From the NCBI GenBank assembly GCA_963771275.1, contig CAVYSW010000005.1, positions 96,001 to 160,000 of the forward strand: DNA of 64,000 bases, written 5' to 3'. Shown one piece after another: positions 2,560 through 46,419 of the stretch. The DNA comes from an uncultured Gemmatimonadales bacterium. Its GTDB lineage: Bacteria; Gemmatimonadota; Gemmatimonadetes; Gemmatimonadales; GWC2-71-9. The notes under the pieces are model-generated. The model ran no database searches and was not told the origin of the DNA. It worked only from the letters and a program-made list of their open reading frames with translations. The position numbers and the translations under genes were made by a program. How positions within the stretch are numbered: position 1 is the stretch's first letter; each line of letters starts with the position of its first letter.

Positions 2560-2624
2560 CGCATGCCCGCGTCGTCGCTCGGGGAGATCGTCGAAGAACG
2601 CGTTAGCCCGGGAGGCAAGGAGCG

Positions 2625-3104
2625 ATGAAGGACACCATTCGGTTCAGGGTGAACGGCCGTCCGGTGACGCTGGAGACCGACGCTACCCGCATGCTGCTCT
2701 GGGTGCTGCGCACGGATCTCGAGCTGACCGGGACCAAGTACGGCTGTGGGGTGGGCCTGTGCGGGTCCTGCACCGTGATCGTGGACGGACACGTGGCGCG
2801 AGCCTGTCAGACGAGCCTCGGGTCCGTCCAGGGGAAGGCCGTCACCACGATCGAGGGGCTCGCCCAGAACGGGAAGCTCGACCCGCTGCAGCAGGCGTTT
2901 CTCGAGCACGGGGGCTACCAGTGCGGGTACTGCACGCCCGGCATGATCATGAACGCGTACGGGCTGCTGCTGCGAAACCCGAAACCCACGCGCGACGAGA
3001 TCCTGCAAGGCATGGAGAGCAACCTGTGTCGCTGTGGCGCGCACACGCGGATTCTCGCGGCGATCGCCGCGGTCGCGGGCCGGGGGGAGGCCAGCCATGA
3101 CTGA
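2625..3104 (+). CDS. (2Fe-2S)-binding small subunit, CoxS/IorA family
   Basis: GTKYGCGVGLCGSC, QCGYC and NLCRC motifs; AAGGAG RBS. Confidence 0.95.
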   Translation: MKDTIRFRVNGRPVTLETDATRMLLWVLRTDLELTGTKYGCGVGLCGSCTVIVDGHVARACQTSLGSVQGKAVTTIEGLAQNGKLDPLQQAFLEHGGYQCGYCTPGMIMNAYGLLLRNPKPTRDEILQGMESNLCRCGAHTRILAAIAAVAGRGEASHD

Positions 3105-5220: not shown

Positions 5221-5275
5221 CAGACCGCCGCCGCCCGCGGGGAGTGCACGCAGAGACGCCTCAAGGAGGCTGCAC

Positions 5276-6391
5276 GTGCCGACTGCCTGGACCATGACCC
5301 GTCTGCTGGCTCCCGCCACCCTGGGAGTGGCGCTGCTCGCGGCCGCGGCGCCGCGTTCCGGCCCGGCCGTCGCGCGCGTCGCGCCCGACTCGCTCGACGA
5401 CGGGCCGCACGTCTACTGGGTCGATTCCTCCCGTGCCGTCGTGCTCTACGTGTGCCACGGCGCCGTGAAGCTCGAGCGCGTTCAGGTGGCGGACACGCTG
5501 CGGTTCCACGGGCTGTGCGCGGACTCGCTGGAAGAGTATCGCCTCGCGGCCCGACCGCCCCGGATCGAGCCCGACGCGTTTGGCGGCGTTCCGCGGATCC
5601 TCGCGGTCAGCGACGTCCACGGGGACTACGACCGGCTCGTGACGTTCCTCCAGCGGGCGGGCGTCGTCGATCGGCGACTCCGCTGGGCGTGGGGCGACGG
5701 CCACCTGGTCGTGGATGGCGACGTGTTCGATCGGGGTGCCGGCGTCACCCAGGCCCTCTGGCTGATCCGTCGGCTCGAGGACGAGGCCCGGGCCTCCGGC
5801 GGCCGGGTACACTACCTGCTCGGCAACCATGAGCTCATGGCCCTGCGCGGTGACACCCGCTACGTGAACCCGAAGTACCTCGGCGGCATCGTCCGTCTGA
5901 GCCGCGTCAGCTACGAGGATCTGGTGGGCCCGGACATGGAGCTGGGGCGCTGGCTGCGGACCAAGCACGTCGCGATCCGGCTGAACGACATCCTGTTCGT
6001 GCACGGCGGGCTGAGCCCGGCGATGGCGGCCCGCGGCCTCGCGCTCGCGGACCTCAACGCGGCGGTCCGCGGCATGATCGACCTCAAGTCCTACGAGCTG
6101 GCGCTGGGGGACCATCCGGCGTTCCTGCTGGGGACCGGTGGGCCGCTGTGGTACCGCGGATACCACTACGCCATGGACGGCGCCTACCCGCAGATCTCCG
6201 CGCCGCAGCTCGACAGCGTGCTGGCGTTCTACGGCGCGCGGGCCGTGGTCGTCGGTCACACGGAGCTGCCGGGGGTGCGGCGCCTCTACGACGGCCGGGC
6301 GTGGGGGGTCGACGTGCCGGTCGACTCGCTGGGTGGATTCCAGGGACTCCTGTGGGAGGGCGGCACGTTCACTCAAGTCCCCAAGGAGTGA
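5276..6391 (+). CDS. Secreted calcineurin-like metallophosphoesterase (Shewanella-like phosphatase type)
   Basis: SDVHG, GDVFDRG, LGNHE, VHGG and GHT motifs; signal-peptide-like N-terminus; AAGGAGG before GTG 5276 (alternative ATG 5294). Confidence 0.88.
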   Translation: MPTAWTMTRLLAPATLGVALLAAAAPRSGPAVARVAPDSLDDGPHVYWVDSSRAVVLYVCHGAVKLERVQVADTLRFHGLCADSLEEYRLAARPPRIEPDAFGGVPRILAVSDVHGDYDRLVTFLQRAGVVDRRLRWAWGDGHLVVDGDVFDRGAGVTQALWLIRRLEDEARASGGRVHYLLGNHELMALRGDTRYVNPKYLGGIVRLSRVSYEDLVGPDMELGRWLRTKHVAIRLNDILFVHGGLSPAMAARGLALADLNAAVRGMIDLKSYELALGDHPAFLLGTGGPLWYRGYHYAMDGAYPQISAPQLDSVLAFYGARAVVVGHTELPGVRRLYDGRAWGVDVPVDSLGGFQGLLWEGGTFTQVPKE

Positions 6392-6408
6392 GCGCGAGAG
6401 CGAGCGGA

Positions 6409-6693
6409 TCAGCTCAGCAGGGCGAAGCCCGCCGCGCGGAAGTGCTCGTCGTACGCGAACGCCACCGAGAACCGCCGCACCCGCATCAGTTCGAAGCTCA
6501 CCGCGTCCGTGAGGGAGAAGCGCTGGTCGCCGAATCGCTCGAGCCACCGGCTCACTGCCGAGCCGATCAAGTCCGTGGTCACACCTTCCCACGCGTAGGC
6601 CGGATCCTCCAGCAAGGCCGCGTCGTGGTACTGGTCTCTCGGGCTGGCGACCGCGAGCAGCGCGCTGGTGTCGACCAGGACGGATGCGCTCAC
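6409..6693 (-). pseudogene. PIN-domain (VapC-like) toxin, apparently with an internal deletion
   Basis: VDTSAL N-terminal motif and SLTDAVSF...AFAYDEHF...GF C-terminal motif, but only 94 aa; the central segment with the second acidic residue is missing. Confidence 0.7.
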
Positions 6694-6904
6694 TTGGCGC
6701 GCTTCTTAAGAAGGGGCGCCGCTCCGTACAAGTAGTCGTCGTGCCGGGCCGCGAGGTCCGCGGGGAGATCGGGGTCGTCACCGAGCGCCCCGCTCAGCGC
6801 GGCGAGCGACCATCCGGGCGCCCGGTCCCCGAGCAGGCGGTCGGCAAGCTGCCGCAATCCCCGGCGCAGCAGCTCCGCCCGGGCGAGGCCGGTGCGCCGC
6901 GCAT
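6690..6904 (-). pseudogene. CopG/ribbon-helix-helix antitoxin remnant (VapB-like), 5' end disrupted
   Basis: ARRTGLARAELLRRGL helix pair and a C-terminal DLAARHDDYLY typical of these antitoxins; GTGA overlap with the PIN gene; the nearest ATG (6904) is out of frame. Confidence 0.55.
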
Positions 6905-6974
6905 GTACCCCGATCTGGCGGGCGGGCCCGGGGCGGCGCACCTTAGCTGCTTCCACACTTCGGGAGCGACTCCC

Positions 6975-7412
6975 ATGGCAGCCATCAACACCGGTCGTGT
7001 GATCGTCGGCGGTCTCGTCGCCGGACTCATCATCAACGTCGTCGAGTTCGTGATGAACATGTTCGTGCTCGCCGGCGACATGAAGGCGGTGTACGAGAAG
7101 ATGGGAGTCGCCGAGCCGGGCGGCGCGGCGATCGGCGGGTACGTGGCGCTCGCGTTCGTGCTCGGCCTGCTGCTCGCGTGGCTCTACGCGGCCATCCGGC
7201 CGCGCTTTGGCGCGGGCCCGAAGACGGCGGCCATCGCGGCGCTGGTTCTGTGGATCGGTGCGGCGCTGGTCCCCATGGTCGCCTGGGTGATGATGGGGAC
7301 GTATCCGATGCGGCTCGTGATCATCGGGCTGGTTTACGGCTTCGTCGAGTACCTGATCGGCGCGCTGGCCGCCGGCGCGATCTATCGGGAGGGTGGGGCG
7401 ACGGCCGTGTAG
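6975..7412 (+). CDS. Small integral membrane protein, about 4 TM helices, unknown function
   Basis: GGAG RBS, ATG 6975, four hydrophobic segments, GC3-biased codons. Confidence 0.82.
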   Translation: MAAINTGRVIVGGLVAGLIINVVEFVMNMFVLAGDMKAVYEKMGVAEPGGAAIGGYVALAFVLGLLLAWLYAAIRPRFGAGPKTAAIAALVLWIGAALVPMVAWVMMGTYPMRLVIIGLVYGFVEYLIGALAAGAIYREGGATAV

Positions 7413-7454
7413 GCGGCAGCCGCACTCAGGGGTGCGGTGGCGTCGGAGGGACTG

Positions 7455-7489
7455 GCGAGTGGCCCGGAGGCGGACCACTCGCTTTTTTT
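7455..7489 (+). terminator. Intrinsic (Rho-independent) terminator
   Basis: GCGAGTGG(c)CCG-gagg-CGG(a)CCACTCGC stem-loop followed by T7. Confidence 0.75.
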
Positions 7490-7560
7490 CGTGGTGCGCG
7501 GCCCCCTGGATCCGGCGGCGATGAACCGGATGAGCGGGCACTTTCCGTGGGAGGAAGTCG

Positions 7561-9093
7561 ATGATCCGTATTGGCACCGGCAAACCGCTGGCCATCGAGG
7601 ACGTGGTCCGCGTGGCGCGGGACGGCGAGCAGATCGAGCTTGCCCCCGCGGCGATCGCGCGGATCGGGCGCTGCCGCACCGTGCTCGAGCGCAAGCTCGC
7701 CGCCCACGAGGTGATGTACGGCGTCAATACCGGGATCGGCGAGCTCGCGGAGGTGGCGCTCGATGACGAGCAGGTCAGGCAGTTCCAGCGCTATCTGATC
7801 TACAACCATGCCGCGGGCATCGGGCGGCCCGCCGCCGTCGAGCACGTCCGGGCCGCCATGCTGTCGCGCGTCGCCGTCCACGCCAATGGCTTCTCGGGCT
7901 GCCGCCCCGAGATTCCGCTCACCTACGTGGCCTTGCTCAACCACGGCGTGACCCCGATCGCCTGCGAGAAGGGCAGCGTCGGCGCCTGCGGCGACCTCGC
8001 GCCCATGAGCCAGATCGCGCTCTCCCTGATGGGAGAGGGTGAGTGCTTCCATCAGGGAGAGCGCATCGCCACGAAGACCGCCATGGAGCGGGCGGGCATC
8101 CCGATCCCCGGTCTGCGGGCGCGCGACGGCCTGGCGGCGATCAACGGGTCGAACCTGATCACCGGGATGGCGTGCCTCATGCTCCACGACGTCGAGCGCT
8201 GGATCAAGCAGGCGGAGATCGCCGCCGCGATGAGCTTGGAGGCGCTGCTCGCCAACCCGCGACCCTATCAGCCCCGGCTCCACGAGCTCCGCGGGTTCCG
8301 CGGTGCCATGACGAGCGCGGCCAACCTGCGGAAGGCGATGGAGGGATCCGACCTGGTGAGCGGCACGCTCAAGGTCAAGGTGCAGGACGCCTACTCGATG
8401 CGCTCCACGCCGCAGGTGATCGGCGCGCTGCGCGACGCCATGGCCTATGCCCGCCGCCAGATCGAGACGGAGCTCAACGGCGTGGCCGACAACCCGATCT
8501 TCCTCGCGGACGAAGACCTGGTCCTGACGGGCGCCAACTTCCAGGGAACGCCGGTGTCGCTGCCGCTCGATCTCATCGGGGCCGGCGTCACGATGGTGAG
8601 CGTGCTGTCCGAGCGCCGGCTCAACCGGCTGCTGAATCCGGCCCTGTCGGTCGGCCTCCCCGCGTTCCTCACGAAGGGTGCCGGCATGTTCTCGGGCCAC
8701 ATGCTCTCCCAGTACACCGCCGATGCGCTGATCGCGGAGCAGCGCATCCTCTCGGCCCCGGCCTGCGTGCAGTCCATTCCCGCGGCGGCCGACCAGGAGG
8801 ACTTCGTGAGCATGGGGATGAACACGGCGCTCAAGACGAAGCAGATCCTGGAGAACGCCCGTGGCGTGCTGGGCATCGAGCTGATCGCGGCGGCCCAGGC
8901 ACTCGACTTCCGGGACTTCACGCCTGGCCGGGGCGTGGACGCCGGCCACCGCGCCGTCCGACGGGTCGTGGCGCACCTCGAGGAGGACCGTCCCCTGTTC
9001 ACCGACCACAACGCCATGGCCGCCGCCGTGGAACGGGGTGACGTGCTCGACGCGGTGGAGCGGGAAGTGGGCGCGCTCGGCAGCTCCTGGTGA
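7561..9093 (+). CDS. Aromatic amino-acid ammonia-lyase (HAL/PAL family) with Ala-Cys-Gly at the MIO site
   Basis: YGVNTG, GSVGACGDLAP, QDAYSMR, DNP, NF and QEDFVSMG motifs; GGAGG RBS. Confidence 0.92.
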   Translation: MIRIGTGKPLAIEDVVRVARDGEQIELAPAAIARIGRCRTVLERKLAAHEVMYGVNTGIGELAEVALDDEQVRQFQRYLIYNHAAGIGRPAAVEHVRAAMLSRVAVHANGFSGCRPEIPLTYVALLNHGVTPIACEKGSVGACGDLAPMSQIALSLMGEGECFHQGERIATKTAMERAGIPIPGLRARDGLAAINGSNLITGMACLMLHDVERWIKQAEIAAAMSLEALLANPRPYQPRLHELRGFRGAMTSAANLRKAMEGSDLVSGTLKVKVQDAYSMRSTPQVIGALRDAMAYARRQIETELNGVADNPIFLADEDLVLTGANFQGTPVSLPLDLIGAGVTMVSVLSERRLNRLLNPALSVGLPAFLTKGAGMFSGHMLSQYTADALIAEQRILSAPACVQSIPAAADQEDFVSMGMNTALKTKQILENARGVLGIELIAAAQALDFRDFTPGRGVDAGHRAVRRVVAHLEEDRPLFTDHNAMAAAVERGDVLDAVEREVGALGSSW

Positions 9094-9316
9094 GGGGAAC
9101 GGGCTGTGAAGTCCCCGTGAAGGCCGCCCGGGAGGTGTGAAGGGGGAGGCCGCCGGCTCGCGCCGGAACCTGCAGCCCTGGCGGACGTAGTATGCGGCGT
9201 CCACCGGGACGACCGAACGGCTGAGCGGCGTGCGTGCGGCGCGACCGGGTGGCCCCGACCACGCGGGCCGATCGCGTCGGCGGTGGGAGCGTCCCATCGG
9301 CGTGAGGTTGGTCCCG

Positions 9317-10423
9317 GTGCGCATCGCGCTCGTCACGGAGTTCTTCTATCCGCACCTCGGCGGGGTGACGGAGCACGTCGCCAATCTGCAGCGCCAGTTC
9401 CGGCAGGCCGGGCACATCGCCCTCATCGTCACCGCGACCATGATCGGGCAGCCCGCCGCCGAGCAGGACGTCGTGCGGGTGGGGCGGAGCCAGGTCGTGT
9501 ACAGCAACGGCTCGTTCGCGCGCGTCACGCTGGGGATGCGGCTGGAGGCGCGCCTGCGCGACGTGTGGCGCCGCGAGCGCATCGACCTGGTGCACCTGCA
9601 CGGACCGCTGGTCCCGACCCTGGGGCTCGTTGCGGCCGAGGCCGCGACCGCGCTCGGCATTCCGATCGTCGGCACCTTCCACAGCTGGTTCCCCCGGTCC
9701 TTCGGGAATCGGCTGTTCCGGGCACCGCTGCAGCGGCGGCTCGACCGGATGGCCGCGACGATCGCCGTGAGCCAGCCGGTCGTGGACGCGAACTCCCGCT
9801 ACTTCGCGGCCGACTGGGAGATCATCCCGAACGGCGTGAACGTCGAGTACTTCCATCCCAACGGCCGGAGCCCGTTCTCCGCCCTTGCCGAAGAGCCGCG
9901 GGTGCTGTTCCTCGGGAGGCTCGACCCCCGGAACGGCCTCGACACGATGCTGGCCGCGATGCCGGCGATCCTGGCCCGGTTCCCGCGCACCCAGCTCACG
10001 GTCGTCGGTGACGGCCCGCTGCGCGCCCGCTACGAAGGGCGGGCGCGGCCGCTCGGTCCCCACGTGCGGTTCGTGGGCTCGGTGTACGAGGAACGCAACG
10101 AGTTCTACGGGGCGACCGACGTCTACGTCTGCCCCACGACGCGGGCCTCGTTCGGGATCACGCTGCTCGAAGCGATGGCCGCCGGCCGGCCGATGGTCGT
10201 GTCGGATATCACGGGATTCCGCGAGCTGGTCGACGGCACCGACGCCGCCGTGCGGGTGCCGGCGGGCGAGCCGGCGGCTTGGGCGGATGCGGTCACGGCC
10301 ATGCTGGGAGACCCCGCGCGGCGGGTCGCCATGGGGGACGCGGGCCGCCGGGCGGCGTTGACGTACGCGTGGCCCGCGGTCGCGCGCCGGGTGCTCGACG
10401 TCTACGAGCGGGTGGCCCGGTGA
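9317..10423 (+). CDS. GT4 family glycosyltransferase (PimA-like)
   Basis: MRIALVTEFFYPHLGGV start, IPNGV, FLGRL and SFGITLLEAMAAG motifs. Confidence 0.92.
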   Translation: MRIALVTEFFYPHLGGVTEHVANLQRQFRQAGHIALIVTATMIGQPAAEQDVVRVGRSQVVYSNGSFARVTLGMRLEARLRDVWRRERIDLVHLHGPLVPTLGLVAAEAATALGIPIVGTFHSWFPRSFGNRLFRAPLQRRLDRMAATIAVSQPVVDANSRYFAADWEIIPNGVNVEYFHPNGRSPFSALAEEPRVLFLGRLDPRNGLDTMLAAMPAILARFPRTQLTVVGDGPLRARYEGRARPLGPHVRFVGSVYEERNEFYGATDVYVCPTTRASFGITLLEAMAAGRPMVVSDITGFRELVDGTDAAVRVPAGEPAAWADAVTAMLGDPARRVAMGDAGRRAALTYAWPAVARRVLDVYERVAR

Positions 10424-36514: not shown

Positions 36515-37810
36515 ATGCGGATCATCCCCACCATCCGACTCGTCGCGCTGCTCACGCTGGCGACCGCGGCCGCGGTCGTCGCGCAGGGGCTGCCGCCGGA
36601 TCGGCCCGAACGGCTCGGCTTCTCCGCGGAGCGGCTCGCGCGGATCGACCGCGTGATGCAGGAGGCGGTGGATCAGGGTCGAGTGGCGGGCCTCGTGACG
36701 CTCGTCGCACGGCACGGCCGGGTGGCGCAGGCGGGTGCCTACGGCTGGGCCGATCGCGAGGCCGGGCGCCGCATGACCACGGACGCGCTGTTCCGCATCG
36801 CGTCACAGACCAAGGCCGTGACCAGCGTCGCGGTGATGCTGCTGGTCGAGGAGGGGCGGCTGCGGCTGGCGGATCCGGTCGCCCGGTACGTGCCGAGCTT
36901 CGCGCGCGCCACGGTCGCCGTCGCGACCGACACCGGGCGGGTATGGGTGCCGGTCCGCCGGCCCATCACGCTCCGCGACCTGCTCACCCACACGGCCGGC
37001 ATCTCCTACGGCACCGACTCGCTGGTGCAGGACCTCTATCGGCCCGTCGGGCTGGGACCGGCGGCCGGCTACGGGTGGTACTTCGCCGACAAGAAAGAGC
37101 CCGTGTGCGACGACGTCGATCGCCTGGGGACGCTGCCGTTCGTCGCGCAGCCGGGTGAACGATTCGTCTACGGCTACGCCACGGACGTTCTGGGCTGCGT
37201 CGTGGAGCGCGCCTCGGGGCAGTCACTCGCCGACTTCTTCGCTTCCCGCGTCTTCCGGCCGCTCCGCATGACGGACACCCATTTCTTCGTTCCGTCGGAC
37301 GATCGGGGAAGGCTCACGGCGGTCTACACCGTTTCGGACGGGGGCCTGGCGCGCGCGGGGGAGGGGTCGCGCGGGCAGGGGGCCTACGGGGACGGCCCGC
37401 GCGCCAGCTACTCGGGGGGTGCGGGACTCGTGTCGACGGCGGGCGACTACCTGCGCTTCCTGGAGATGCTCCTCGAAGGCGGCGTGCTCGACGGGGCGCG
37501 CGTGCTCGGATCCAGGACCGTGGCGCTGATGACCGCGGACCAGCTCGGCGCGCTCTACGGCAGCACAGGCTACGGGTTCGGATTGGGGTTCCAGGTGCTG
37601 GTGGATCCGGGCCGCGCCGGTCAGTTCGGCTCCCCTGGCCTGTACGGGTGGGGTGGCGCGTACGCCACGAGCTACTGGGTGGATCCGCAGGAAGACCTGG
37701 TCGGGGTCTTCATGGTGCAGCTGCTGCCGAACCCGGGGCTCGATCTCGCCGACCGGTTCCGCGCGCTGGTCTATCAGGCGATCGTCGCCCCATCGCCGCG
37801 ACGCCCCTGA
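36515..37810 (+). CDS. Beta-lactamase-family serine hydrolase (esterase-like), secreted
   Basis: FRIASQTK (SxxK), LLTHTAG, FVYG, SGGAGL and WGGAYAT motifs. Confidence 0.92.
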   Translation: MRIIPTIRLVALLTLATAAAVVAQGLPPDRPERLGFSAERLARIDRVMQEAVDQGRVAGLVTLVARHGRVAQAGAYGWADREAGRRMTTDALFRIASQTKAVTSVAVMLLVEEGRLRLADPVARYVPSFARATVAVATDTGRVWVPVRRPITLRDLLTHTAGISYGTDSLVQDLYRPVGLGPAAGYGWYFADKKEPVCDDVDRLGTLPFVAQPGERFVYGYATDVLGCVVERASGQSLADFFASRVFRPLRMTDTHFFVPSDDRGRLTAVYTVSDGGLARAGEGSRGQGAYGDGPRASYSGGAGLVSTAGDYLRFLEMLLEGGVLDGARVLGSRTVALMTADQLGALYGSTGYGFGLGFQVLVDPGRAGQFGSPGLYGWGGAYATSYWVDPQEDLVGVFMVQLLPNPGLDLADRFRALVYQAIVAPSPRRP

Positions 37811-37821
37811 CCCCGGGTGGG

Positions 37822-38547
37822 TCAGTCCCTGCCGTCCTTGAGGGCGAGCGCGATGTAGCGCTCGAGCTCCTCCGCCGACTTGGCGCCGCGGAGCCGCCGG
37901 CCGTTGATGAACAGCGTTGGGGTGCCGTTCACGCCCAGCTCCCAGCCGTCCAGCAGATCGCGCGCCACCGCGGTCCGCGTCTCCTCCGCTTGCAGGCACG
38001 ACTCGAACGCCGCGAGGTCGAGACCGGCCGCGGCCGCATGGGCGCGGAGTACGGCGTCCGAAAGCGGCCCGGTGTCCCGCAGTAGCGCGTCGTGGTACTC
38101 CCAGAAGCGCCCCTGGCGGTAGGCGCACTCCGCCGCCTGGGCGGCCGCGATCGCGAACGGGTGGAGCGCGGCGAGCGGGAAGTTGCGCACCACGTAGCGG
38201 ACGCTGTCGCCGTAGCGGGTCAGCACGACGGGCAGGATCTCCGTCGCATGCCGGCGGCAGAACGGGCACTCGTAATCGGTGAACTCGACGATCGTGACGG
38301 GCGCATCAACCGGGCCGCGGGACGGGCGGTCGGTGATCGGCACCGCGGCCGGCACCGCGTCGGCGTAGTCGGCCGCGTCACCCGCGAGGCGCGCGGCTGC
38401 CGCGCTGCTGCGGATGCGCTGGACCGTGCGGACGCCGAGGAACAGCCCGGCGCCGCCCAGCAGCCCCGCCAGGACGGCGGCTACCACCATCGCATGATTG
38501 GCATTCAGGGCGATCGCGATCCGGTCGCCCTTGCGGTGGATTTCCAT
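37822..38547 (-). CDS. Membrane-anchored DsbA/thioredoxin-fold oxidoreductase
   Basis: N-terminal TM segment, EFTDYECPFC active site, FPL and GVNGTPT cis-Pro loop. Confidence 0.92.
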   Translation of the reverse strand: MEIHRKGDRIAIALNANHAMVVAAVLAGLLGGAGLFLGVRTVQRIRSSAAAARLAGDAADYADAVPAAVPITDRPSRGPVDAPVTIVEFTDYECPFCRRHATEILPVVLTRYGDSVRYVVRNFPLAALHPFAIAAAQAAECAYRQGRFWEYHDALLRDTGPLSDAVLRAHAAAAGLDLAAFESCLQAEETRTAVARDLLDGWELGVNGTPTLFINGRRLRGAKSAEELERYIALALKDGRD

Positions 38548-39128: not shown

Positions 39129-40058
39129 ATGACCGACACCCTCTCTCGTCGAGCATTCGTGGAAGCTACGGGCGCCGTGCTGCCCGCGGCGTTCCCGTGG
39201 GTTACGGGAGGTCGCTGTGCGGCACCGCGGCCGGATGAGCCGCTGTTTCGCATCTCCCTCGCCGAGTGGTCGCTCCACCGGGCGCTCGGCAGCGGGACCC
39301 TCGATCACCTCGACTTCCCGCTGGTGGCGCGGCGCGACTACGGGATCGAGGCCGTCGAGTACGTCAACACGTTTTTCCGGGGCAGGGGGACCGACGAGCG
39401 CTATCTCGCGGCGCTGAAGGCCCGGGCGGCCGATCACGGGGTGAAGAACGTCCTCGTCATGTGCGACGGCGAGGGTGCGATCGGCGATCCGGATCCCGCC
39501 GCGCGCACCCGGACGATCGAGAACCACTTCAAGTGGCTCGATGCCGCCGCGGTCCTCGGTTGTCACTCGATTCGCGTGAATGCGCAGTCGCAGGGAAGCG
39601 ACGCCGAGCAGCACGACCTGGTGGTGGACGGGCTGCGCCGGCTGACGGAGGTGGCGACCCTGCGCGACCTCAGCGTCATCGTGGAGAACCACGGTGGGCT
39701 TTCGTCCAACGGCGCGTGGCTCGCGGCAGTTATCCGGGCAGTGGGACACCCGCGGTGCGGCACGCTGCCCGACTTCGGGAATTTCCAACTTGGCGGGAAT
39801 GAGTGGTACGACCGCTACCGGGGCGTCGCCGAGATGATGCCGTTCGCCCGGGCGGTGAGCGCCAAGTCCCACGACTTCGATGCCGAGGGCAACGAGCAGC
39901 ACACGGACTTCCGCCGGATGCTGCGGATCGTGCTCGATGCCGGCTACCACGGTCACGTCGGGATCGAATACGAGGGAAGCGGGTTGAGCGAGCCCGACGG
40001 CATTCGCGCTACCAAAGCGCTGCTCGAGCGCGTCCGCGCCGAGCTCACCGGGGCATAG
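39129..40058 (+). CDS. Sugar phosphate isomerase/epimerase (xylose-isomerase-like TIM barrel), Tat signal
   Basis: SRRAFV twin-arginine motif; ISLAEWS, ENHGG, PDFGNF and IEYEG metal-binding motifs. Confidence 0.9.
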   Translation: MTDTLSRRAFVEATGAVLPAAFPWVTGGRCAAPRPDEPLFRISLAEWSLHRALGSGTLDHLDFPLVARRDYGIEAVEYVNTFFRGRGTDERYLAALKARAADHGVKNVLVMCDGEGAIGDPDPAARTRTIENHFKWLDAAAVLGCHSIRVNAQSQGSDAEQHDLVVDGLRRLTEVATLRDLSVIVENHGGLSSNGAWLAAVIRAVGHPRCGTLPDFGNFQLGGNEWYDRYRGVAEMMPFARAVSAKSHDFDAEGNEQHTDFRRMLRIVLDAGYHGHVGIEYEGSGLSEPDGIRATKALLERVRAELTGA

Positions 40059-40063
40059 CCCAC

Positions 40064-41116
40064 ATGCGGGAGGCCGCGCGGATCGCCCGGAGGTTCGCGA
40101 CCCTGGTCGAGATGGGGTTCGAGCGGGCGGACCACGCGCCCGTCGCCACCGACGTCATCCGGCTCGACCCGGCGACCGCGCAGGTCGTGGGCGGGCGCCC
40201 CGCGATGGGCACGCTGGTGTCCGTCTCGGCCGTGGGCGAATCGCCGGACCGGCTGGAGGAGGCGATCGGGCGGGCGTTCGCAGAGATGGACCGCCTGATC
40301 GGGCTGCTCACCCGGTTCGAGCCTGCCTCCGCCGTGAGCCAGCTCAACGCGACCGGCCGGCTCGAGGGGGCACCGCCCGAGGTCGTGCGCGTCGTGCGGC
40401 GCGCGCTCGAGCACCACGCGCTGAGCGGCGGGGCGTTCGACGTCACGGTCGCGCCGCTCGTGGATCTGTTCGCCGACCGGTTCGGCCGCGACACGCCTAC
40501 CGAGCCCACGGCGGCGGAGATCCGCGACGCCCTCGAGCGCGTGGGGTCGCGGCACGTCGCGGTTGCGCGGCGGCGGATCAGCTTCGCGCGCGAGGGCGTC
40601 GCCGTCACGCTCGACGGCATCGCCAAGGGCTACATCGTGGACGGGATGGCGCGGGCGCTCGACCGGCGCGGGGTCACGCGCTATCTGATCAACGCGGGCG
40701 GCGACATCCGGACGCGAGGGATGAAGCAGCGCGGGCGCCCGTGGACGATCGCGGTGCGGCATCCGTCGCGGAGCGGCGCGTTCGCGGACGCGATCCACGT
40801 GACCGACGCGGCGGTCGCCACGTCCGGGAGCTACGAGGTCTGGTTCGACGACGACCGCGCGTTCCACCATATCGTGAGCGCGCAAACCGGGCGGTCCCCA
40901 AACGGCGTGGCGAGCGTGTCGGTGGTCGCCCCCACGGCGATGGCGGCCGACGCGCTGGCCACGGGCACGTTCGTGCTGGGGCCGCGCGACGGGGTCGCGC
41001 TGATCGAGCGGCTGCGCGGGTGCGCATGTCTGATCATCGATCGGGACGGGCGGCAGTGGAGATCGCGGGGCTGGAGGAGTGCACCACGCACTGAGGGAGA
41101 CGAGGTGGCGTCATGA
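40064..41116 (+). CDS. apbE: FAD:protein FMN transferase
   Basis: AMGT, GAFDVTV, LDGIAKGY, INAGGD, ATSGSYE, HHI and ADALAT motifs. Confidence 0.94.
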   Translation: MREAARIARRFATLVEMGFERADHAPVATDVIRLDPATAQVVGGRPAMGTLVSVSAVGESPDRLEEAIGRAFAEMDRLIGLLTRFEPASAVSQLNATGRLEGAPPEVVRVVRRALEHHALSGGAFDVTVAPLVDLFADRFGRDTPTEPTAAEIRDALERVGSRHVAVARRRISFAREGVAVTLDGIAKGYIVDGMARALDRRGVTRYLINAGGDIRTRGMKQRGRPWTIAVRHPSRSGAFADAIHVTDAAVATSGSYEVWFDDDRAFHHIVSAQTGRSPNGVASVSVVAPTAMAADALATGTFVLGPRDGVALIERLRGCACLIIDRDGRQWRSRGWRSAPRTEGDEVAS

Positions 41117-41628
41117 CCCAAGGATCATCCCGTACCGGCGTTCAAACGGCGGCTCTGGTCACACTCCGCATCCTGATCGGCTGGCACTTTCTGTATGAGG
41201 GCCTGGCCAAGGTACTGAGTCCGTACTGGACCTCTGCGGAGTACATGGACCAGGCGCGCTGGCTGTTCCGGGGGCTGTTTCACAGCCTCGCGGCGAGCCC
41301 CACCGCCGTGACGATCGTGGACCTCCTCAACACCTGGGGACTCACGCTGATCGGAGCGGGGCTGCTGGTCGGACTGCTGACGCGCACGGCCACGGCGTCC
41401 GGGCTGCTGCTGCTCGTGTTGTACTACATCGTGGCGCCGCCGTTCGTCGGCTTGCTGTACGCCATGCCGGCGGAGGGGAGCTACCTGGTCGTCAACAAAG
41501 TGCTGGTCGAGGCCGCCGCCCTGCTGGTACTGCTCGCGTTCCCGACGGGCCATCGGTATGGCCTGGACGCACTCGTGTTCCGGAATCGCGGCGCTGCCTA
41601 CCAGGCCCCCGAGCGGGCCGGCGCCTGA
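41113..41628 (+). CDS. DoxX/DoxD-family membrane protein (putative quinone-interacting)
   Basis: LRILIGWHFLYEGLAK, four TM segments, GLLTR and YGLD motifs; ATGA coupling to apbE. Confidence 0.85.
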   Translation: MTQGSSRTGVQTAALVTLRILIGWHFLYEGLAKVLSPYWTSAEYMDQARWLFRGLFHSLAASPTAVTIVDLLNTWGLTLIGAGLLVGLLTRTATASGLLLLVLYYIVAPPFVGLLYAMPAEGSYLVVNKVLVEAAALLVLLAFPTGHRYGLDALVFRNRGAAYQAPERAGA

Positions 41629-41637
41629 GGACACCCG

Positions 41638-43236
41638 ATGACCGACGAAACCAAGCAGCCAAGCGCGACCAAGGCGCCGGCCGATGACTCGACGCGGATC
41701 AGCCGGCGGGGCCTGCTCAAGGCCCTGGTCTCCCTCCCCGTCGTGGGCGTCTTCGTCTACAACTTTCTCAGGAAGAAGGCGGCGGACGACGCCAAGCGGC
41801 GGGCGATCCTCGCCGAGCTCGGCGTGGCCGAGGGTGGGCCGGCCGTCATTCCGAACGCCATCTCGCAGCCACCCAGCAAGAAGCTCCGGGTGGGCATCAT
41901 CGGGTACGGTGGGGAAGGCGAGTCGCTGGTTCGTCACGCCGGGTTCGCGCACCCCGACTGGGTCGACGGCGCGCGCAAGAGCGTGCGGGAGAACCCGCGC
42001 GACAAACAGCTCGAGACGTATCTCAACCAAGACGACCTCAACATCGCGATCACGGCGGTGTGCGATGTGTTCGACGTGCGCGCCGAGCGTGCCATCGCCG
42101 CGTCGCAGGTGGACGTGCGCTCGGGCGGCGGGCCGGCGCTGCCGGCGGCCAAGCGGTACGCGCGCTACACGGACCTGCTCGAGAGCGGCGACGTGGATGC
42201 CGTGATCATCGCGACGCCCGATCACTGGCACGCGCGGATGACGATGGATGCCGCGGCGGCGGGGATCCACGTCTACTGCGAGAAGTGCATGACCCGGACG
42301 GCCGAGGAGGCGGTCGCGGTCCACGACGCCGTGACCAGGTCGGGCATCGTCTTCGAGCTCGGTCATCAGAACCGGCAGTCGGAGGCGCACAACAAGGCGC
42401 GCGAGATCATCGCGGCCAAGATCCTGGGGCCCATCACGCTGGTCGAGTCCACGACGAACCGCAACTCGCCGTGGGGTGCCTGGGTATGGGACATTCACAA
42501 GGACGGGAACCCGAAGACGATCGACTGGGCGCATTTCGAGGAGCCGGCCCCACACAAGGTGCCGTTCAGCCTCGAGCGCTTCTTCCGGTGGCGCTGCTGG
42601 TTCGACTACGGCACCGGCCTCTCCGGCGACCTGCTGTCGCATGAGTACGACGGGGTGAACCAGATCCTCCAGGTCGGGATCCCGCGCTCGTGCGTCGCGT
42701 CCGGGGGGATCTACTACTTCAAGGACGGACGCGACGTACCGGACACGTTCCAGGCCGTGTACGAGTACCCCGACCGGGATCTCACGTTCGTCTACAGCGC
42801 CACGCTGGCCAACGGACGCGATCGCGGCCTCGTATTCATGGGACACGACGCCTCGATGCGCGTGAGCGGCAGCCTCACGATTCAGGCGGACTACGAGTCG
42901 ACGCGCTACGAGCAGAAGATCAAGGACGGCGTGATCGACCCGGGACAGCCGATGTTCACGTACCGTCCGGGCTTCAAGGGGATCGACGCCGTGACGTCGG
43001 CGACGGAGCAGTACTTCGCCAGCCGCGGGCTGCTGTTTACGTATCGGGGTGGGCGGCGGATGTCGGCCTACCATCTGCTCATCGCGGAGTGGCTCGACGT
43101 GATCCGGAACGGCGGCACGACGAGCTGCAGTGTGGACCGCGGCTTCGAAGAAGCGATCACGTGCCACATGGCCACGCGGTCGTATCTGGAGGGCAGGAAG
43201 GTGACCTGGGACGCTCGGCGCAGGGTGATCGTGTAG
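41638..43236 (+). CDS. Gfo/Idh/MocA family oxidoreductase with twin-arginine leader and putative flavinylation motif
   Basis: SRRGLLK plus hydrophobic segment; GIIGYG, ATPDHWH, CEKC and GDLLSH motifs; DAVTSAT at residues 450-456. Confidence 0.9.
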   Translation: MTDETKQPSATKAPADDSTRISRRGLLKALVSLPVVGVFVYNFLRKKAADDAKRRAILAELGVAEGGPAVIPNAISQPPSKKLRVGIIGYGGEGESLVRHAGFAHPDWVDGARKSVRENPRDKQLETYLNQDDLNIAITAVCDVFDVRAERAIAASQVDVRSGGGPALPAAKRYARYTDLLESGDVDAVIIATPDHWHARMTMDAAAAGIHVYCEKCMTRTAEEAVAVHDAVTRSGIVFELGHQNRQSEAHNKAREIIAAKILGPITLVESTTNRNSPWGAWVWDIHKDGNPKTIDWAHFEEPAPHKVPFSLERFFRWRCWFDYGTGLSGDLLSHEYDGVNQILQVGIPRSCVASGGIYYFKDGRDVPDTFQAVYEYPDRDLTFVYSATLANGRDRGLVFMGHDASMRVSGSLTIQADYESTRYEQKIKDGVIDPGQPMFTYRPGFKGIDAVTSATEQYFASRGLLFTYRGGRRMSAYHLLIAEWLDVIRNGGTTSCSVDRGFEEAITCHMATRSYLEGRKVTWDARRRVIV

Positions 43237-43262
43237 GGGAGACGCGAGACGGAGGAGATGAC

Positions 43263-44483
43263 GTGAGCACAACGGTCCGCCTGTGCGCGATGATGTTCCT
43301 GCAGTACGCGATCTGGGGCGCGTGGGCTCCCGTGCTCTCGGCGCACCTCATCGGCAACCTGGGGTTCAGCGGCGGGCAGGTCGGCTGGATCTACGCCCTG
43401 CTTCCCCTGGCCACGATCGTCTCGCCGTTCATCGGGGGCCAGGTCGCGGATCGGTACTTCGCGTCGGAGAAGGTGATCGGCTGCCTCGCCCTGACCGGCG
43501 GCGCGCTCCTGGTCGTGGTATCGCGCACGACGGATTTCACAGTCATGAGCGGGCTGATGCTGCTCTACTGCCTGCTCTACGCCCCCACCCTCGCGCTCAC
43601 CAACTCGATCGCGATGATCAACCTGAAGGACTCCGAGGAGGAGTTCGGGCGGATCCGCGTGTGGGGCACGCTCGGCTGGATCGCCGCGGGCCTGACGCTC
43701 AGCGGGTGGCGCTGGCTGGCGCGGGACGGCGTGATGCCCGTGGTCGCCGGGGACACGCTGCTGCTCGCCGGGGTGCTCTCGATCGTGATGGGCATCCAGT
43801 CGTTCACGCTGCCGCATACGCCCCCCCGCACGGAGGGTGTGAAGCCGTGGGCCTTCGTCGAATCGCTGAAGATGCTGCGGGTCAGGGACTTCGCGATCTT
43901 CGTCGGGATCACGTTCGTCGTCGCGACCGAGCTCGAGTTCTACTACATCCTGACGGCCCCGTTCCTCGAGGCGAAGATCGGCGTATCGAGCGCCAACGTG
44001 CCCGCGGTGATGACGGTGGGTCAGCTCGCCGAGATCTTCGTCATGGCGTTCTTCCTGTCGCGGGCGCTGAAACGCTACGGCATGCGGAGGACGCTCGCGA
44101 TCGGGGTGATCGCGTGGCCGCTGCGCTACATCGTGTTCGCCGTCGGGAGCCCGGGGTGGCTGGTGATCGCGTCGCTCGCGCTCCACGGCTTCTGCTACGT
44201 GTTCTTCTTCGTCGCCGCGTTCATCTACGTGGACAAGGTGGCGCCGCCGGACGTCCGGGCCTCGGCGCAGAGCCTCATCGCGATCGTGGCGCTGGGATTC
44301 GGACGGTTCCTGGGCAGCCTGTTTGCCGGCCGTATTCGGGACGTGTTCACGACGGACGCGGGGACGAACTGGACCCATGTGTTCCTCGTCCCGTGCGCGC
44401 TCACCGTGCTGTGCGCGGTGGCGTTTCTGCTGTTCTTCCGGGAGAAGACGCCGCCGCGGCCACTGGAGCAAGTCCATGGGTAA
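43263..44483 (+). CDS. MFS transporter, nucleoside:H+ symporter (NupG/XapB/YegT) family
   Basis: MMFLQYAIWGAW, GQVADRY, IRVWGTLGW and LHGFCY motifs; about 12 TM segments. Confidence 0.92.
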   Translation: MSTTVRLCAMMFLQYAIWGAWAPVLSAHLIGNLGFSGGQVGWIYALLPLATIVSPFIGGQVADRYFASEKVIGCLALTGGALLVVVSRTTDFTVMSGLMLLYCLLYAPTLALTNSIAMINLKDSEEEFGRIRVWGTLGWIAAGLTLSGWRWLARDGVMPVVAGDTLLLAGVLSIVMGIQSFTLPHTPPRTEGVKPWAFVESLKMLRVRDFAIFVGITFVVATELEFYYILTAPFLEAKIGVSSANVPAVMTVGQLAEIFVMAFFLSRALKRYGMRRTLAIGVIAWPLRYIVFAVGSPGWLVIASLALHGFCYVFFFVAAFIYVDKVAPPDVRASAQSLIAIVALGFGRFLGSLFAGRIRDVFTTDAGTNWTHVFLVPCALTVLCAVAFLLFFREKTPPRPLEQVHG

Positions 44484-45738
44484 CCTCGCAGGCAAGCGGC
44501 TGGGGGTCGGTCTGATCGGCGGCGGGTTCGTCGCCAGGTTCCACATCCGGTCCTGGGTGGGTGTGCGGGACGCGGACATCCGGGGGAGCGTGAGCCGGAA
44601 CGACGGCACGGCGGAAGAGGCGGCGGTCCTGGCGCGGCGACTCGGCGTCGGGGACGCCAAGGTCTACCGCACGATCACGGACATGGTAGCGGACCCCGCG
44701 ATCCACGCGCTCTGGATCTGCGCGCCGAACTTCACCCGCATCGAGGTCATGGAGGAGATCGTCCACGCGATCGAGTCGGGGAAAGGCACGCTCGTCGGGG
44801 TAGCGTGCGAGAAGCCGCTCGGCCGGAACGCGGCGGAAGCGCGCCGCATGCTCGAGCTGGCGCGCCGCGTAGGGCTGCTCGACGGCTACCTCGAAAACCA
44901 GCTCTTCTCGCCGGGCGTGGTCCGGGGCAAAGACATCGTGTGGAGCCGGGGCGCGGCGCTCACGGGGCCACCCTTCCTGGCGCGCGCCGCGGAGGAGCAC
45001 AGCGGCCCGCACATGCCGTGGTTCTGGGAGGGAGCCCTGCAGGGAGGAGGGGTCCTCAACGACATGATGTGCCACTCGGTCGAGGTCGCCCGGTTCCTGC
45101 TCACGCCCCCCGGCGCGACGCGCGACGCGCTCACGCCGGTCAAGGTCACGGCCCATACGGCGTGCCTCAAGTGGCAGCAACCCCGCTACGCCGATCGTCT
45201 CGCGCGGGACAGTGCAGGAAAGACGGACTACCGGAACCGGCCCGCCGAGGATTTCGCCCGCGCCCTGGTGGAGTTCCGGGCGGCGGACGGAAGCCGGCGG
45301 CTCGTCGAGGCCACGACGTCCTGGTGCTTCGTCGGCGCGGGTCTCCGGCTCAGCATGGAGCTGCTGGGCCCGGAGTACTCGCTGGCCGTGAACTCGCTGG
45401 ATGCCGGGCCGAAGATCTTCTTCAGCCGGGAGGTGCGCGGCGCGGCCGGCGAGGACCTCGTGGAGAAACAGAACGCGGAGATGGGGCTCATGCCGGTCGT
45501 GAGCGACGAAGAGGCCGAGTACGGATATGTGGGGGAGAACCGGCACATGGTGCAGGCGTTCCGGGAGGGGCGACGCCCCGCGGAGAGCTTCACGGACGGG
45601 GTCGCCGTGACCGAACTCCTGATGACGGCGTACATGAGCGCGGAGCAGGAGCGCACGATCGCGTTCCCGCCGCCCGATCTAGCGGCGTTCGTGCCGGCCG
45701 TGGCGAGGGGGCAATGGAATCCGGGCCAGCCCGCGTAG
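44476..45738 (+). CDS. Cytoplasmic Gfo/Idh/MocA family oxidoreductase
   Basis: GLIGGGFVA, CEKPL and GGGVLNDMMCH motifs; no signal peptide. Confidence 0.92.
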   Translation: MGNLAGKRLGVGLIGGGFVARFHIRSWVGVRDADIRGSVSRNDGTAEEAAVLARRLGVGDAKVYRTITDMVADPAIHALWICAPNFTRIEVMEEIVHAIESGKGTLVGVACEKPLGRNAAEARRMLELARRVGLLDGYLENQLFSPGVVRGKDIVWSRGAALTGPPFLARAAEEHSGPHMPWFWEGALQGGGVLNDMMCHSVEVARFLLTPPGATRDALTPVKVTAHTACLKWQQPRYADRLARDSAGKTDYRNRPAEDFARALVEFRAADGSRRLVEATTSWCFVGAGLRLSMELLGPEYSLAVNSLDAGPKIFFSREVRGAAGEDLVEKQNAEMGLMPVVSDEEAEYGYVGENRHMVQAFREGRRPAESFTDGVAVTELLMTAYMSAEQERTIAFPPPDLAAFVPAVARGQWNPGQPA

Positions 45739-45753
45739 GGCGGAGGAGGCAGC

Positions 45754-46419
45754 ATGCGGTGTGTCGGAGGCGTGTGGTGGGGGAGCGTGCTCGGGGCGGT
45801 CGCCGTGGGGGCCCAGGCGCCGATGCGTGAGGCGTCAGCCCAGGACCCGGGCGCGACGCCGGGGTTCGAGCAGCTCCTCAAGACGCCCGACGGCGGATAC
45901 TCCAAGGCTGGGTGGAACCACTACGGTCCGGGCTACTTCGATCTCGATCCGCAGACCGGGATGCTGACGTCGCACGGCGGCATGGGTCTGTTCTGGTACG
46001 CGGTCCGAGAGTACGCCGACTTCGTGCTCGAGCTGGATTTCAGGTGCACGGACGGGGCGACCAACTCCGGCGTGTTCCTGCGGGTGCCCGGTGTGCCGTC
46101 GAGCGACGACTACATCTATCACAGCTTCGAGATCCAGATCGACGACGCGAGCGCAGGGATTCACCACACCGGTGCGGTGTACGACGCGGAGGCGCCAAGC
46201 GCGCTCGCGTCGAAGCCGCCGGGCGAGTGGAATCACTACGCGATCACCTTTCGGGGCGGCCACGTCACCGTCGAGCTCAACGGCACGAAGGTGATCGACT
46301 GGGAAGCCGAGCCGCGGGGCAAGGTGCGGGACTGGGCACGGCGGGGCTACATCGGGCTCCAGAACCACGACAACCAGAGCCCCGTGTCCTTCCGCAACAT
46401 CTTCGTCAAGCAGCTCTAG
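45754..46419 (+). CDS. DUF1080 / 3-keto-disaccharide hydrolase family protein, secreted
   Basis: DFVLELDF, NSGVFLR, FEIQI, TGAVYD, GEWN and GYIGLQNH...FRNI motifs; signal peptide. Confidence 0.92.
   Translation: MRCVGGVWWGSVLGAVAVGAQAPMREASAQDPGATPGFEQLLKTPDGGYSKAGWNHYGPGYFDLDPQTGMLTSHGGMGLFWYAVREYADFVLELDFRCTDGATNSGVFLRVPGVPSSDDYIYHSFEIQIDDASAGIHHTGAVYDAEAPSALASKPPGEWNHYAITFRGGHVTVELNGTKVIDWEAEPRGKVRDWARRGYIGLQNHDNQSPVSFRNIFVKQL

Follow-up and report, generated by a model that had tools for sequence, protein, structure and literature searches.

Among the closest described relatives of the system considered here are the dehydrogenases BT2158 and AL3, members of the Gfo/Idh/MocA family that are exported by the twin-arginine translocation (Tat) pathway and that hold their nicotinamide adenine dinucleotide (NAD) tightly and in non-exchangeable form. 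How the bound cofactor is re-oxidised is a matter of conjecture (PMC8121099; bioRxiv 10.1101/2024.03.25.586180). Another, as yet unidentified, sugar was suggested as the oxidant in one source (PMC8121099), and reduction of 3-ketoglucose in the other (bioRxiv 10.1101/2024.03.25.586180). This report concerns a relative of these enzymes, here called Gfo1, that is encoded at positions 41638-43236 (+ strand) of a 64,000-nucleotide stretch of contig CAVYSW010000005.1 from an uncultured Gemmatimonadales bacterium (the window, at its full length), behind genes for a DoxX-like membrane protein and for ApbE, a flavin adenine dinucleotide (FAD):protein flavin mononucleotide (FMN) transferase. On balance, the comparative evidence leans towards an enzyme that is flavinylated by ApbE, with the FMN re-oxidising NAD(H) and the electrons reaching quinone, probably via the DoxX-like protein.

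Two other kinds of sugar dehydrogenase invite comparison. GFOR of Zymomonas is, like Gfo1, a Tat-exported Gfo-type enzyme; its NADP is tight and non-exchangeable, and the protein is folded before export (cited in PMC8121099). It is also found among the matches of Gfo1 in the Protein Data Bank (PDB; 1ofg, E 4.8e-19). Unlike Gfo1, GFOR is soluble, re-oxidises its cofactor in a ping-pong reaction with a second sugar, and has no flavin, membrane partner or motif of the kind described below. The FAD-dependent glucoside 3-dehydrogenases LacABC and ThuAB also oxidise glycosides at C3 in the periplasm, with the respiratory chain receiving the electrons (PMC8121099), but their folds (GMC-type and others) are unrelated, their acceptor is cytochrome c, and neither NAD nor an ApbE-type flavin linkage is involved.

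The named substrates of ApbE comprise FMN_bind, NqrB/RnfD, DUF2271, DUF3570, Flavodoxin_4 and FMN_red proteins and the fumarate and urocanate reductases (PMC12052999, PMC8238504, PMC11334425). In the FMN_bind proteins NqrC, RnfG and NosR, the Thr acceptor of a D-x-x-[ST]-G-A-[ST] motif carries an extracytoplasmic electron-transfer flavin, and the likeness of Gfo1 to these proteins is confined to the motif. Flavodoxin_4 and FMN_red, the newest proven substrates, in which an insertion or extension bears the motif (Huang et al. 2024, PMC11334425), and DUF2271 and DUF3570 (Meheust et al. 2021, PMC8238504) were recognised by the same logic as is used here, in which an orphan apbE stands beside an [ST]GA[ST]-like motif on a flexible insertion or tail. 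Those proteins were either flavoproteins beforehand or dedicated small domains, and experiments established their flavinylation, whereas Gfo1 is a Rossmann-fold NAD(P) dehydrogenase without a known flavin site and is known here from sequence. A literature search, in which supplementary tables were not covered, found no paper linking ApbE or DoxX to a Gfo/Idh/MocA enzyme, and none describing a flavinylated member of the family, in agreement with what had been said in an earlier reading of this DNA (the original prediction). The main text of PMC8238504 contains no occurrence of 'gfo' or 'doxx'; its supplementary cluster tables could list such clusters.

The tight coupling of the three genes, which the original prediction had pointed to, is borne out by their boundaries. 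The apbE gene (40064-41116, + strand; PF02424) shares 4 bases with the start of the gene for the DoxX-like four-helix membrane protein (41113-41628, + strand; PF07681), the stop of which lies 9 bases ahead of the Gfo1 start. The 532-residue Gfo1 begins with a Tat signal or anchor, S-R-R-G-L-L-K followed by a hydrophobic helix, in which the twin-arginine codons (R23 and R24) lie at 41704-41709. Near the other end is the sequence DAVTSAT (42985-43005, residues 450-456), a candidate ApbE flavinylation site with Thr456 as its last residue. Both the position of this motif and the presence of the export signal are as the original prediction had described them.

In the mechanism proposed, Gfo1 would be a Tat-exported glycoside or sugar dehydrogenase with bound NAD(P), and its twin-arginine signal-anchor, left uncleaved, would hold it at the membrane next to the DoxX-like protein. 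The ApbE from two genes upstream would attach FMN to Thr456 by a phosphoester bond, and, as the window ApbE is predicted to be cytoplasmic (see below), attachment would precede Tat export. The tethered flavin would re-oxidise the non-exchangeable NAD(P)H after every sugar oxidation and would then hand the electrons on, with quinone at DoxX as the most probable acceptor. In this way respiration would be fed by the C3-oxidation of glycosides in the periplasm, with no second sugar needed as oxidant, and the remaining products of the cluster (a TIM barrel, a DUF1080 hydrolase, a transporter of the major facilitator superfamily (MFS) and a second Gfo protein, Gfo2) would round off a 3-keto-glycoside pathway like that of AL1-AL5 / BT2156-2159. 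It is likely that Thr456 carries covalent FMN; that this FMN acts as a relay from NADH to quinone via DoxX has about an even chance of being right. As a whole, this interpretation appears to be the best available reading, and it is well supported by comparative evidence.

The membership of Gfo1 in the Gfo/Idh/MocA family is evident from its Pfam matches (PF01408, 53 bits, along with C-terminal domains; PF22725, 33 bits; PF02894, 25 bits) and from Foldseek, which gave a probability of 1.00 to many structures of the family. Positions of the G-x-G-x-x-G, E-K and D-x-x-x-H motifs are invariant (G89, G91, E215, K216 and H335), and R23 and R24 are kept in at least 90% of homologues (alignments A1 and A2). 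The fold matches include the C3-oxidising Gfo enzymes RgNanOx, levoglucosan dehydrogenase, AL3 glucoside-3-dehydrogenase, glucuronide-3-dehydrogenase and DgpA. By sequence, the closest solved structure is Alistipes AL3 (8tdf, E 1.5e-42, with only residues ~149-336 aligned). Gfo1 scored 115.3 bits, over residues 145-381 only, against the NCBIfam model BT_2158_fam (NF058561), the cut-off of which is 750, and is thus a relative rather than a member of the BT_2158 family. The Gfo1 subfamily is distinct within Gfo/Idh/MocA and related to the glycoside 3-dehydrogenases. With AL3 and BT2158 (AL1-AL5, BT2156-BT2159; 8tdf) it shares the family fold, the twin-arginine signal and the NAD-binding and catalytic motifs, as well as a cluster that contains a TIM barrel, a DUF1080 hydrolase and a second, cytoplasmic Gfo. 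Unlike them, it carries the motif on a C-terminal insert, is partnered by DoxX and has, in several lineages, an ApbE of its own. The AlphaFold2 (AF2) model of Gfo1 has a mean predicted local distance difference test score (pLDDT) of 86 and is weak only at the N-terminal signal-anchor and at residues 447-452 (<50). In the model, Thr456 lies on the motif loop, at the N-terminus of helix 455-462.

A motif of this kind means little when it is seen once. The loose form D..[ST][GSA]A[ST] occurs 77 times in the 4.59 million residues of six-frame open reading frames (ORFs) of the genome, which gives a chance of ~1% for a protein of 532 residues, so that a single occurrence is not significant alone and conservation is what counts. 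Among the matches listed, DA[VIM][TS]SAT is kept in all 120 of 120 homologues with at least 72% identity. More distant relatives were compared as representatives of 50%-identity clusters, the alignment taking in the 85, out of 150 listed, that have 400 residues or more. Full-length representatives from 61% down to 39% identity keep [IV]-[DE]-[AG]-[VI]-[ST]-[STG]-[AP]-[ST], and two of them have the canonical DAVSGAT; in more distant ones the motif degrades first, and then the whole insert of ~45 residues is gone.

The same pattern was found when gene neighbourhoods were collected. A scan at one genome per species yielded 80 loci, of which 25 were orthologue loci, from 24 genomes and with 36-62% identity to Gfo1, and 55 were distant Gfo loci. 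By their record titles, the 25 are mostly from Bacteroidota, with one from Gemmatimonadota and one from Nitrospinales. A metagenome scan added 38 orthologue and 42 distant loci, and a sample of 151 genomes from the phylum of the window contained 22 with a Gfo1-type protein, namely nine true orthologues (the window's own genome included) and 13 members of a family designated f10. More than 4,800 homologues at E <= 1e-10 were present among the candidates examined. The motif is found at 25/25 reference-genome orthologue loci and in all 36 metagenome orthologues that have their C-terminus on the contig, and the insert is missing from 55/55 distant loci. In the last 130 residues, a looser core, [STA][GST][AP][ST], is present in 58/58 orthologue ORFs of at least 450 residues, and [ST][GS]A[ST] in 0/94 distant Gfo ORFs from the collected loci that have 350 residues or more. 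Every Gfo1 orthologue examined has a D/E-x-x-[TSA]-[STG]-[AP]-[TS] loop, with conservation in the subfamily reaching down to 36-39% identity. The traits that never vary are a last residue that is Thr or Ser, a first residue that is acidic, and small residues at positions 5 and 6. Within the family, the canonical forms SGAT and TGAT turn up repeatedly (P0135, P0139, L008, L068 and L165).

The DoxX-like gene accompanies the motif closely. A DoxX-like ORF adjoins the Gfo1 orthologue at 25/25 reference-genome loci, at 7/7 assessable Gemmatimonadota loci, at 6/6 loci of family f10 and at 32/38 metagenome loci, where five of the six misses end at a contig edge; beside distant Gfo genes no such ORF was seen at 55 and 42 loci, respectively. 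By record titles, the adjacency spans at least three phyla. DoxX-Gfo1-like pairs are also present in the 13 f10 genomes, with apbE not alongside. The order of the two genes varies: DoxX lies downstream rather than upstream of Gfo1 at L025-L028, and one Bacteroidales metagenome-assembled genome (MAG) has two modules, on two contigs (L025 and L068), with the orders Gfo1-DoxX and DoxX-Gfo1. The original prediction had proposed that the motif would be conserved specifically where apbE and doxX are neighbours. Conservation across the subfamily and with doxX as neighbour was indeed found, and adjacency of apbE turned out not to be required: the motif follows DoxX adjacency almost perfectly and apbE adjacency only partly, most Bacteroidota-type orthologues keeping the motif while apbE stands elsewhere in the genome.

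Linkage to ApbE can nevertheless be seen in more than one lineage. The order apbE-doxX-gfo1 is contiguous at all seven other Gemmatimonadota orthologue loci that have their upstream flank, usually followed by genes for the MFS transporter, Gfo2 and the DUF1080 protein. It is also contiguous in a Bacteroidetes MAG (L024), with RibD_C and SnoaL neighbours and no nqr nearby. Other arrangements are doxX-gfo1-gfo-DUF1080-TIM-apbE, with ApbE last, at L142 (a locus that contains SusD) and L168, and a convergent apbE at the end of the cluster at L161. When the order of G170, the Bacteroidetes MAG with apbE-doxX-gfo1, was searched, the module was found in 1/151 genomes, that of G170 itself. No fusion of ApbE or DoxX to Gfo longer than 931 residues was present in 913 candidates at E <= 1e-10, which is weak evidence. 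Over the examined flanks, ApbE occurs at 2/25 reference and 9/38 metagenome orthologue loci, compared with 0/55 and 2/42 distant loci; the totals are 11/63 vs 2/97 (Fisher p = 7e-4, for relatives that are not independent of one another). Two of these ApbEs, those of L140 and L145, are ambiguous. The one at L140 stands in a convergent row of NusG_II, RseC and ferredoxin genes, and both may belong to the neighbouring operon of this type. Without them the linkage is 9/63 vs 2/97 (p = 0.007). At the level of whole genomes, ApbE occurs in 22/22 genomes with Gfo1 in the phylum sample vs 69/129 others (the unpublished G057 included), and somewhere in 22 of the 24 genomes from which the other orthologue loci came.

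A tree of 32 ApbE domains places the Gemmatimonadota cluster ApbEs in one clade (support 100/100) and those of L024, L142 and L168 in another (100/99), both separate from the clade of Nqr-linked ApbEs (100/100); ApbEs of at least two lineages thus reside in Gfo1 clusters. The window ApbE spans positions 1-265 of the 266 of PF02424 (253 bits, cut-off 25.6) and scored 143.5 bits against the E. coli-type equivalog PRK10461 of NCBIfam (cut-off 498). Neither an export signal nor a lipobox was seen in it, its N-terminus being conserved and non-hydrophobic like those of eight Gemmatimonadota orthologues, and the cluster ApbE is for this reason predicted to be cytoplasmic. A cytoplasmic ApbE that flavinylates its substrate is known from K. 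pneumoniae (PMC12052999). The signal peptide is missing from the ApbEs of L142 and L168 as well, and those of L024 and L161 have a lipobox. At L168 a tatC gene (5161-5991, - strand) immediately follows the signal-less cluster ApbE, convergent to it.

The original prediction had found no other obvious ApbE target in the window, and for the cluster this holds, Gfo1 being the only protein there with an [ST][GSA]A[ST] core. The genome of the window has exactly two ApbE genes. The second is on another contig beside nqrB and nqrC, which are the genome's only NqrB/RnfD and FMN_bind matches; DUF2271 and DUF3570 gave no match in this genome. Nqr, with DMVTGAT as its NqrC motif, is accounted for by this second ApbE (L002, G000:C3:1149049-1152873, ORF 1201-2349), which is not a lipoprotein and has a Tat-type signal, T-R-R-Q-F-L plus a hydrophobic stretch. 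With a Tat signal on one ApbE and none on the other, the two paralogues appear to work in different compartments. G046, a genome that is 100% complete in eight contigs, is also informative on this point. Its single full ApbE lies inside apbE-doxX-gfo1, and the search for a competing canonical target there covered four families, Flavodoxin_4 and FMN_red not being among them: FMN_bind and DUF3570 gave no match, and an RnfD-like membrane protein (28 bits only) and a sub-threshold DUF2271-like match (23.8 bits) both lacked the motif. Within the genus of G046, Gfo1 is found in one of seven genomes and full ApbE in that genome only, the other six having partial ApbE-like matches and no Gfo1. Partial matches of this sort occur in all seven; the one in G046 (L128, G046:C2:347000-350500, ORF 1332-2009) is a 225-residue lipoprotein with a truncated, weak ApbE-like match.

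A second subfamily of Tat-exported Gfo proteins shows a similar combination. On the minus strand of G108 (L227, G108:C12:62800-72627, 1696-7019), a third ApbE heads a row made up of a Tat-Gfo of 414 residues (P0271), a DUF1080-like protein, a second Tat-Gfo, a TIM barrel and a GHMP kinase, and the same ApbE-Gfo pair is found in G111, of the same genus (L229, G111:C110). P0271 has 30% identity to Gfo1, in the N-terminal part only. It carries G-V-H-T-S-A-T about 80 residues from its C-terminus, before the C-terminal helix, the same relative place as in Gfo1. An alignment of 113 of the 120 listed homologues (at least 395 residues, 59-100% identity) showed that a T-[SGTK]-[APS]-[TS] core is kept in 113/113, with TGAT in some. 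No DoxX-like ORF was seen at L227 or L229, and this independent occurrence of the core beside ApbE without DoxX favours a flavinylation site over a loop for docking to DoxX.

Other ApbEs adjoin Tat-Gfo genes in which an SGAT-like motif is missing, at L178 (829-4636), L187 (3580-7962), L215 (4972-7295) and L217 (3462-5880). In family f10 a signal-less ApbE and a 404-residue Tat-Gfo of this sort form a divergent pair in two genera. The ApbEs beside motif-less Tat-Gfo genes, together with the G108 copy, make up one further clade (97/90). They may act in trans, recognise an unseen feature, or have another role; the f10 genomes do contain motif-bearing DoxX-Gfo1-like pairs as possible targets in trans. 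Adjacency alone hence does not identify a Gfo as substrate.

The step from FMN to quinone depends on what the DoxX-like protein does. In thiosulfate:quinone oxidoreductase the subunit that reduces quinone is DoxD, and the DoxX-like proteins MhqP and CatD are tied to quinone and catechol chemistry. The Gfo1 partner resembles the DoxDA system in matching PF07681 and clusters of the ESM Atlas (score 0.96, 221-222 of 256 features in common) that are auto-named 'thiosulfate dehydrogenase [quinone] large subunit'. It differs from DoxDA in scoring only 16.3 bits against the DoxD equivalog NF041179 (cut-off 300), in lacking a DoxA, and in that the donor would be a sugar dehydrogenase. A prediction of the Gfo1-DoxX complex, which the original prediction had called for, lent the pairing weak support, with a score of 0.52 against 0.00 for the best of three controls. 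The mark used was reached by 116/157 solved complexes and 2/215 mismatched pairs in calibration, scores of 0.60 or less coming from only 18 of the 157 and from both of the passing mismatches, and this calibration is only rough for a run with custom alignments and with NAD and FMN as ligands. The partner had a pLDDT of at least 77 and the runs shared at least 64% of contacts. It is quite likely that Gfo1 and DoxX touch each other.

An alternative that accepts the flavinylation of Gfo1 makes DoxX a mere anchor or assembly partner, the FMN passing its electrons to another acceptor (a cytochrome, O2 or a periplasmic oxidoreductase) or the flow running in reverse, from quinol through FMN to NAD, for the reduction of 3-keto-sugars. 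Several findings pull in this direction and away from quinone reduction at DoxX. The Pfam assignment is marginal (24.6 bits vs a cut-off of 23.6), and the L024 partner has no Pfam match at E <= 0.001. The DoxX model (pLDDT 87) gave nothing at E <= 0.001 when compared with the PDB by Foldseek, and its best structural match is an assembly factor, NACHO/TMEM35A (Z 12.0, root-mean-square deviation (rmsd) 3.0 over 118 residues). The next match, the membrane region (52-189) of the vitamin-K-dependent carboxylase (Z 6.5-8.9, rmsd 3.2-3.5 over 123-133 residues), may reflect a mere common helical arrangement, being below the level that is safe for helical bundles by VIA-align. Quinone binding by DoxX is suggested by family-level knowledge and likeness of fold. 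Finally, the motif occurs without a nearby DoxX-like ORF not only at L227 and L229 but also at L165, the sole miss with readable flanks (none in 2.5 kb upstream and 3.2 kb downstream), which argues that the flavin, if present, need not always act via DoxX. L165 is a marine metagenome contig on which the Gfo1 orthologue (2583-4073) has a twin-arginine signal and a canonical DGISGAT; its neighbours are two sulfatase genes and a gene for a PF12831 FAD-dependent oxidoreductase, and these flanks hint at another electron partner. The alternative must be set against the adjacency of DoxX at every other assessable orthologue locus, in at least three phyla, and against the quinone roles of DoxD and MhqP/CatD. 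Furthermore, the DoxX-like protein is strongly conserved, and charged and aromatic residues in its first helix are invariant (R19, E29, K33 and W39), which suggests a role beyond anchoring. This alternative is regarded as unlikely.

A second alternative denies the modification itself: the loop would be a structural element, such as a DoxX-docking surface, an active-site lid or a 'regulatory arm' like that of AL3, and ApbE would serve another substrate or role. A loop of AL3 does reach the active site of the partner subunit (bioRxiv 10.1101/2024.03.25.586180). Several observations count against flavinylation of Gfo1, starting with the motif. When DAVTSAT is compared with the canonical D-x-x-[ST]-G-A-[ST], the D, T(4), A(6) and T(7) fit and Ser stands at G(5), a departure that was noted in the original prediction. 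In deviating forms this fifth position is S, T or A. In some orthologues the fourth position is Ala (DGVASAT, DTVATAT, DSVATAT, DGFATAT) or the sixth is Pro (TSPT, TTPT), and the loop of family f10, G-[IV]-E-A-[IVL]-T-[SA]-A-T, has Glu in place of Asp in 8/8 proteins. About ten ordinary proteins of the genome show a canonical-looking motif by chance; from their flanking residues, the frames concerned look to be ordinary proteins such as cytochrome b and peptidases. The idea that the insert is a hidden FMN_bind domain was rejected: hhalign against NqrC aligned 11 motif columns only, at a probability of 1.9%, PF04205 (FMN_bind) has no match on Gfo1, and a search of solved-structure sequences with the insert profile and with residues 380-532 returned chance-level rows only. 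The gene neighbourhoods add to this side of the balance, in that the motif tracks DoxX more closely than apbE, with no apbE nearby at 23/25 reference and 29/38 metagenome orthologue loci, the L140 and L145 ApbEs may belong elsewhere, and ApbE also stands beside the motif-less Tat-Gfo genes at L178 and L187 and beside the 404-residue f10 protein. Two module-bearing MAGs, G157 (1.8 Mb) and G158 (3.3 Mb), for which completeness is not stated, have no ApbE.

On the other side, the positions of the loop that never vary are those that flavinylation needs, and changes in the motif are to some extent tolerated: replacement of G by A kept ~50% flavinylation of a model substrate and replacement of D by A had a minor effect (PMC12052999). 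The recurrence of canonical SGAT and TGAT forms within the family speaks against a purely structural loop, as does the presence of the same core beside ApbE in a second subfamily that lacks DoxX. The full ApbE of G046, in a genome with none of the four classic target families searched, and the recruitment of ApbEs of two lineages in differing gene orders likewise speak for a flavinylated Gfo1, and a purely structural loop is less likely still than an anchor-only DoxX. That the cluster ApbE is no protein flavinylator, acting instead as an Ftp-like FAD pyrophosphatase (an activity known in the family, PMC4767422), in flavin trafficking or as a maturation factor for Tat-Gfo proteins, might be entertained for a clade that stands beside Tat-Gfo genes, in three of four contexts without a recognisable motif, and for several cluster ApbEs that lack signal peptides, but it is highly improbable given the full coverage of the Pfam profile by the window ApbE and the known cytoplasmic flavinylating ApbEs, and it would leave the conservation of the motif unexplained.

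Seven + strand genes, called as ORFs and assigned by Pfam, extend over 39129-46419, overlapping or with gaps of at most 27 bases, in the order TIM barrel, ApbE, DoxX-like, Gfo1, MFS, Gfo2 and DUF1080 hydrolase. The first (39129-40058, + strand; PF01261, 90 bits) encodes a xylose-isomerase-like TIM barrel, the translation of which begins with a Tat signal (S-R-R-A-F-V); within the 3-keto-glycoside pathway it corresponds to AL1/BT2156, and it recurs in the same cluster at the Gemmatimonadota orthologue loci. Behind Gfo1 are three further genes that are kept in the cluster. The MFS transporter (43263-44483, + strand; PF03825, 336 bits) belongs to the nucleoside:H+ symporter family and is probably the importer of the sugar or keto-sugar product. 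Gfo2 (44476-45738, + strand; PF01408, 55 bits) has no signal and is taken as cytoplasmic for that reason; it lacks the motif and is the counterpart of AL4/BT2159. The last gene (45754-46419, + strand; PF06439, 132 bits) encodes a DUF1080 / 3-keto-disaccharide hydrolase with a signal peptide, the counterpart of AL2/BT2157. In G023 (L120, G023:C9:178244-195828, 5480-9618), the Gfo1, MFS and Gfo2 genes are each broken over two or three frames, which suggests frameshifts, from decay of the cluster or from assembly errors. Upstream of the cluster in the window are genes for a beta-lactamase-family serine hydrolase (36515-37810, + strand) and a membrane-anchored DsbA/thioredoxin-like protein (37822-38547, - strand), for which no tie to the cluster was seen at related loci. 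The G+C content of the window is ~71%, and the closest relatives of its proteins bear Gemmatimonadota labels.

In gut and soil bacteria, periplasmic Gfo-type glycoside 3-dehydrogenases stand at the start of a broad-specificity route for breaking down glycans that has been recognised recently. A flavinylated, DoxX-coupled form would directly answer the question of NAD re-oxidation for a subfamily that is widespread, with members from Gemmatimonadota, Bacteroidota, Nitrospinales and further lineages according to record titles. A known modification would gain a new class of substrate, and the periplasmic dehydrogenases a new architecture. If true, such a form would bring the first class of NAD(P)-dependent enzymes among the substrates of ApbE, would provide a concrete redox partner for the DoxX family, which is poorly understood, and would tie glycoside oxidation to respiration. 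More tentatively, and with somewhat less than even confidence, ApbE flavinylation may reach Rossmann-fold NAD(P) dehydrogenases more widely, in at least two unrelated subfamilies of Tat-exported Gfo proteins, the FMN, tethered by a phosphoester to a flexible loop, serving as a built-in 'swinging arm' that would re-oxidise the non-exchangeable NAD(P)H and carry its electrons to the membrane and, in the present case, to quinone at DoxX. Should this prove true, these enzymes would be a previously unrecognised type of respiratory dehydrogenase, DoxX proteins would be the quinone-reducing subunits for periplasmic sugar oxidation, and the purpose of the cytoplasmic ApbE paralogues would be to load the flavin ahead of Tat export.

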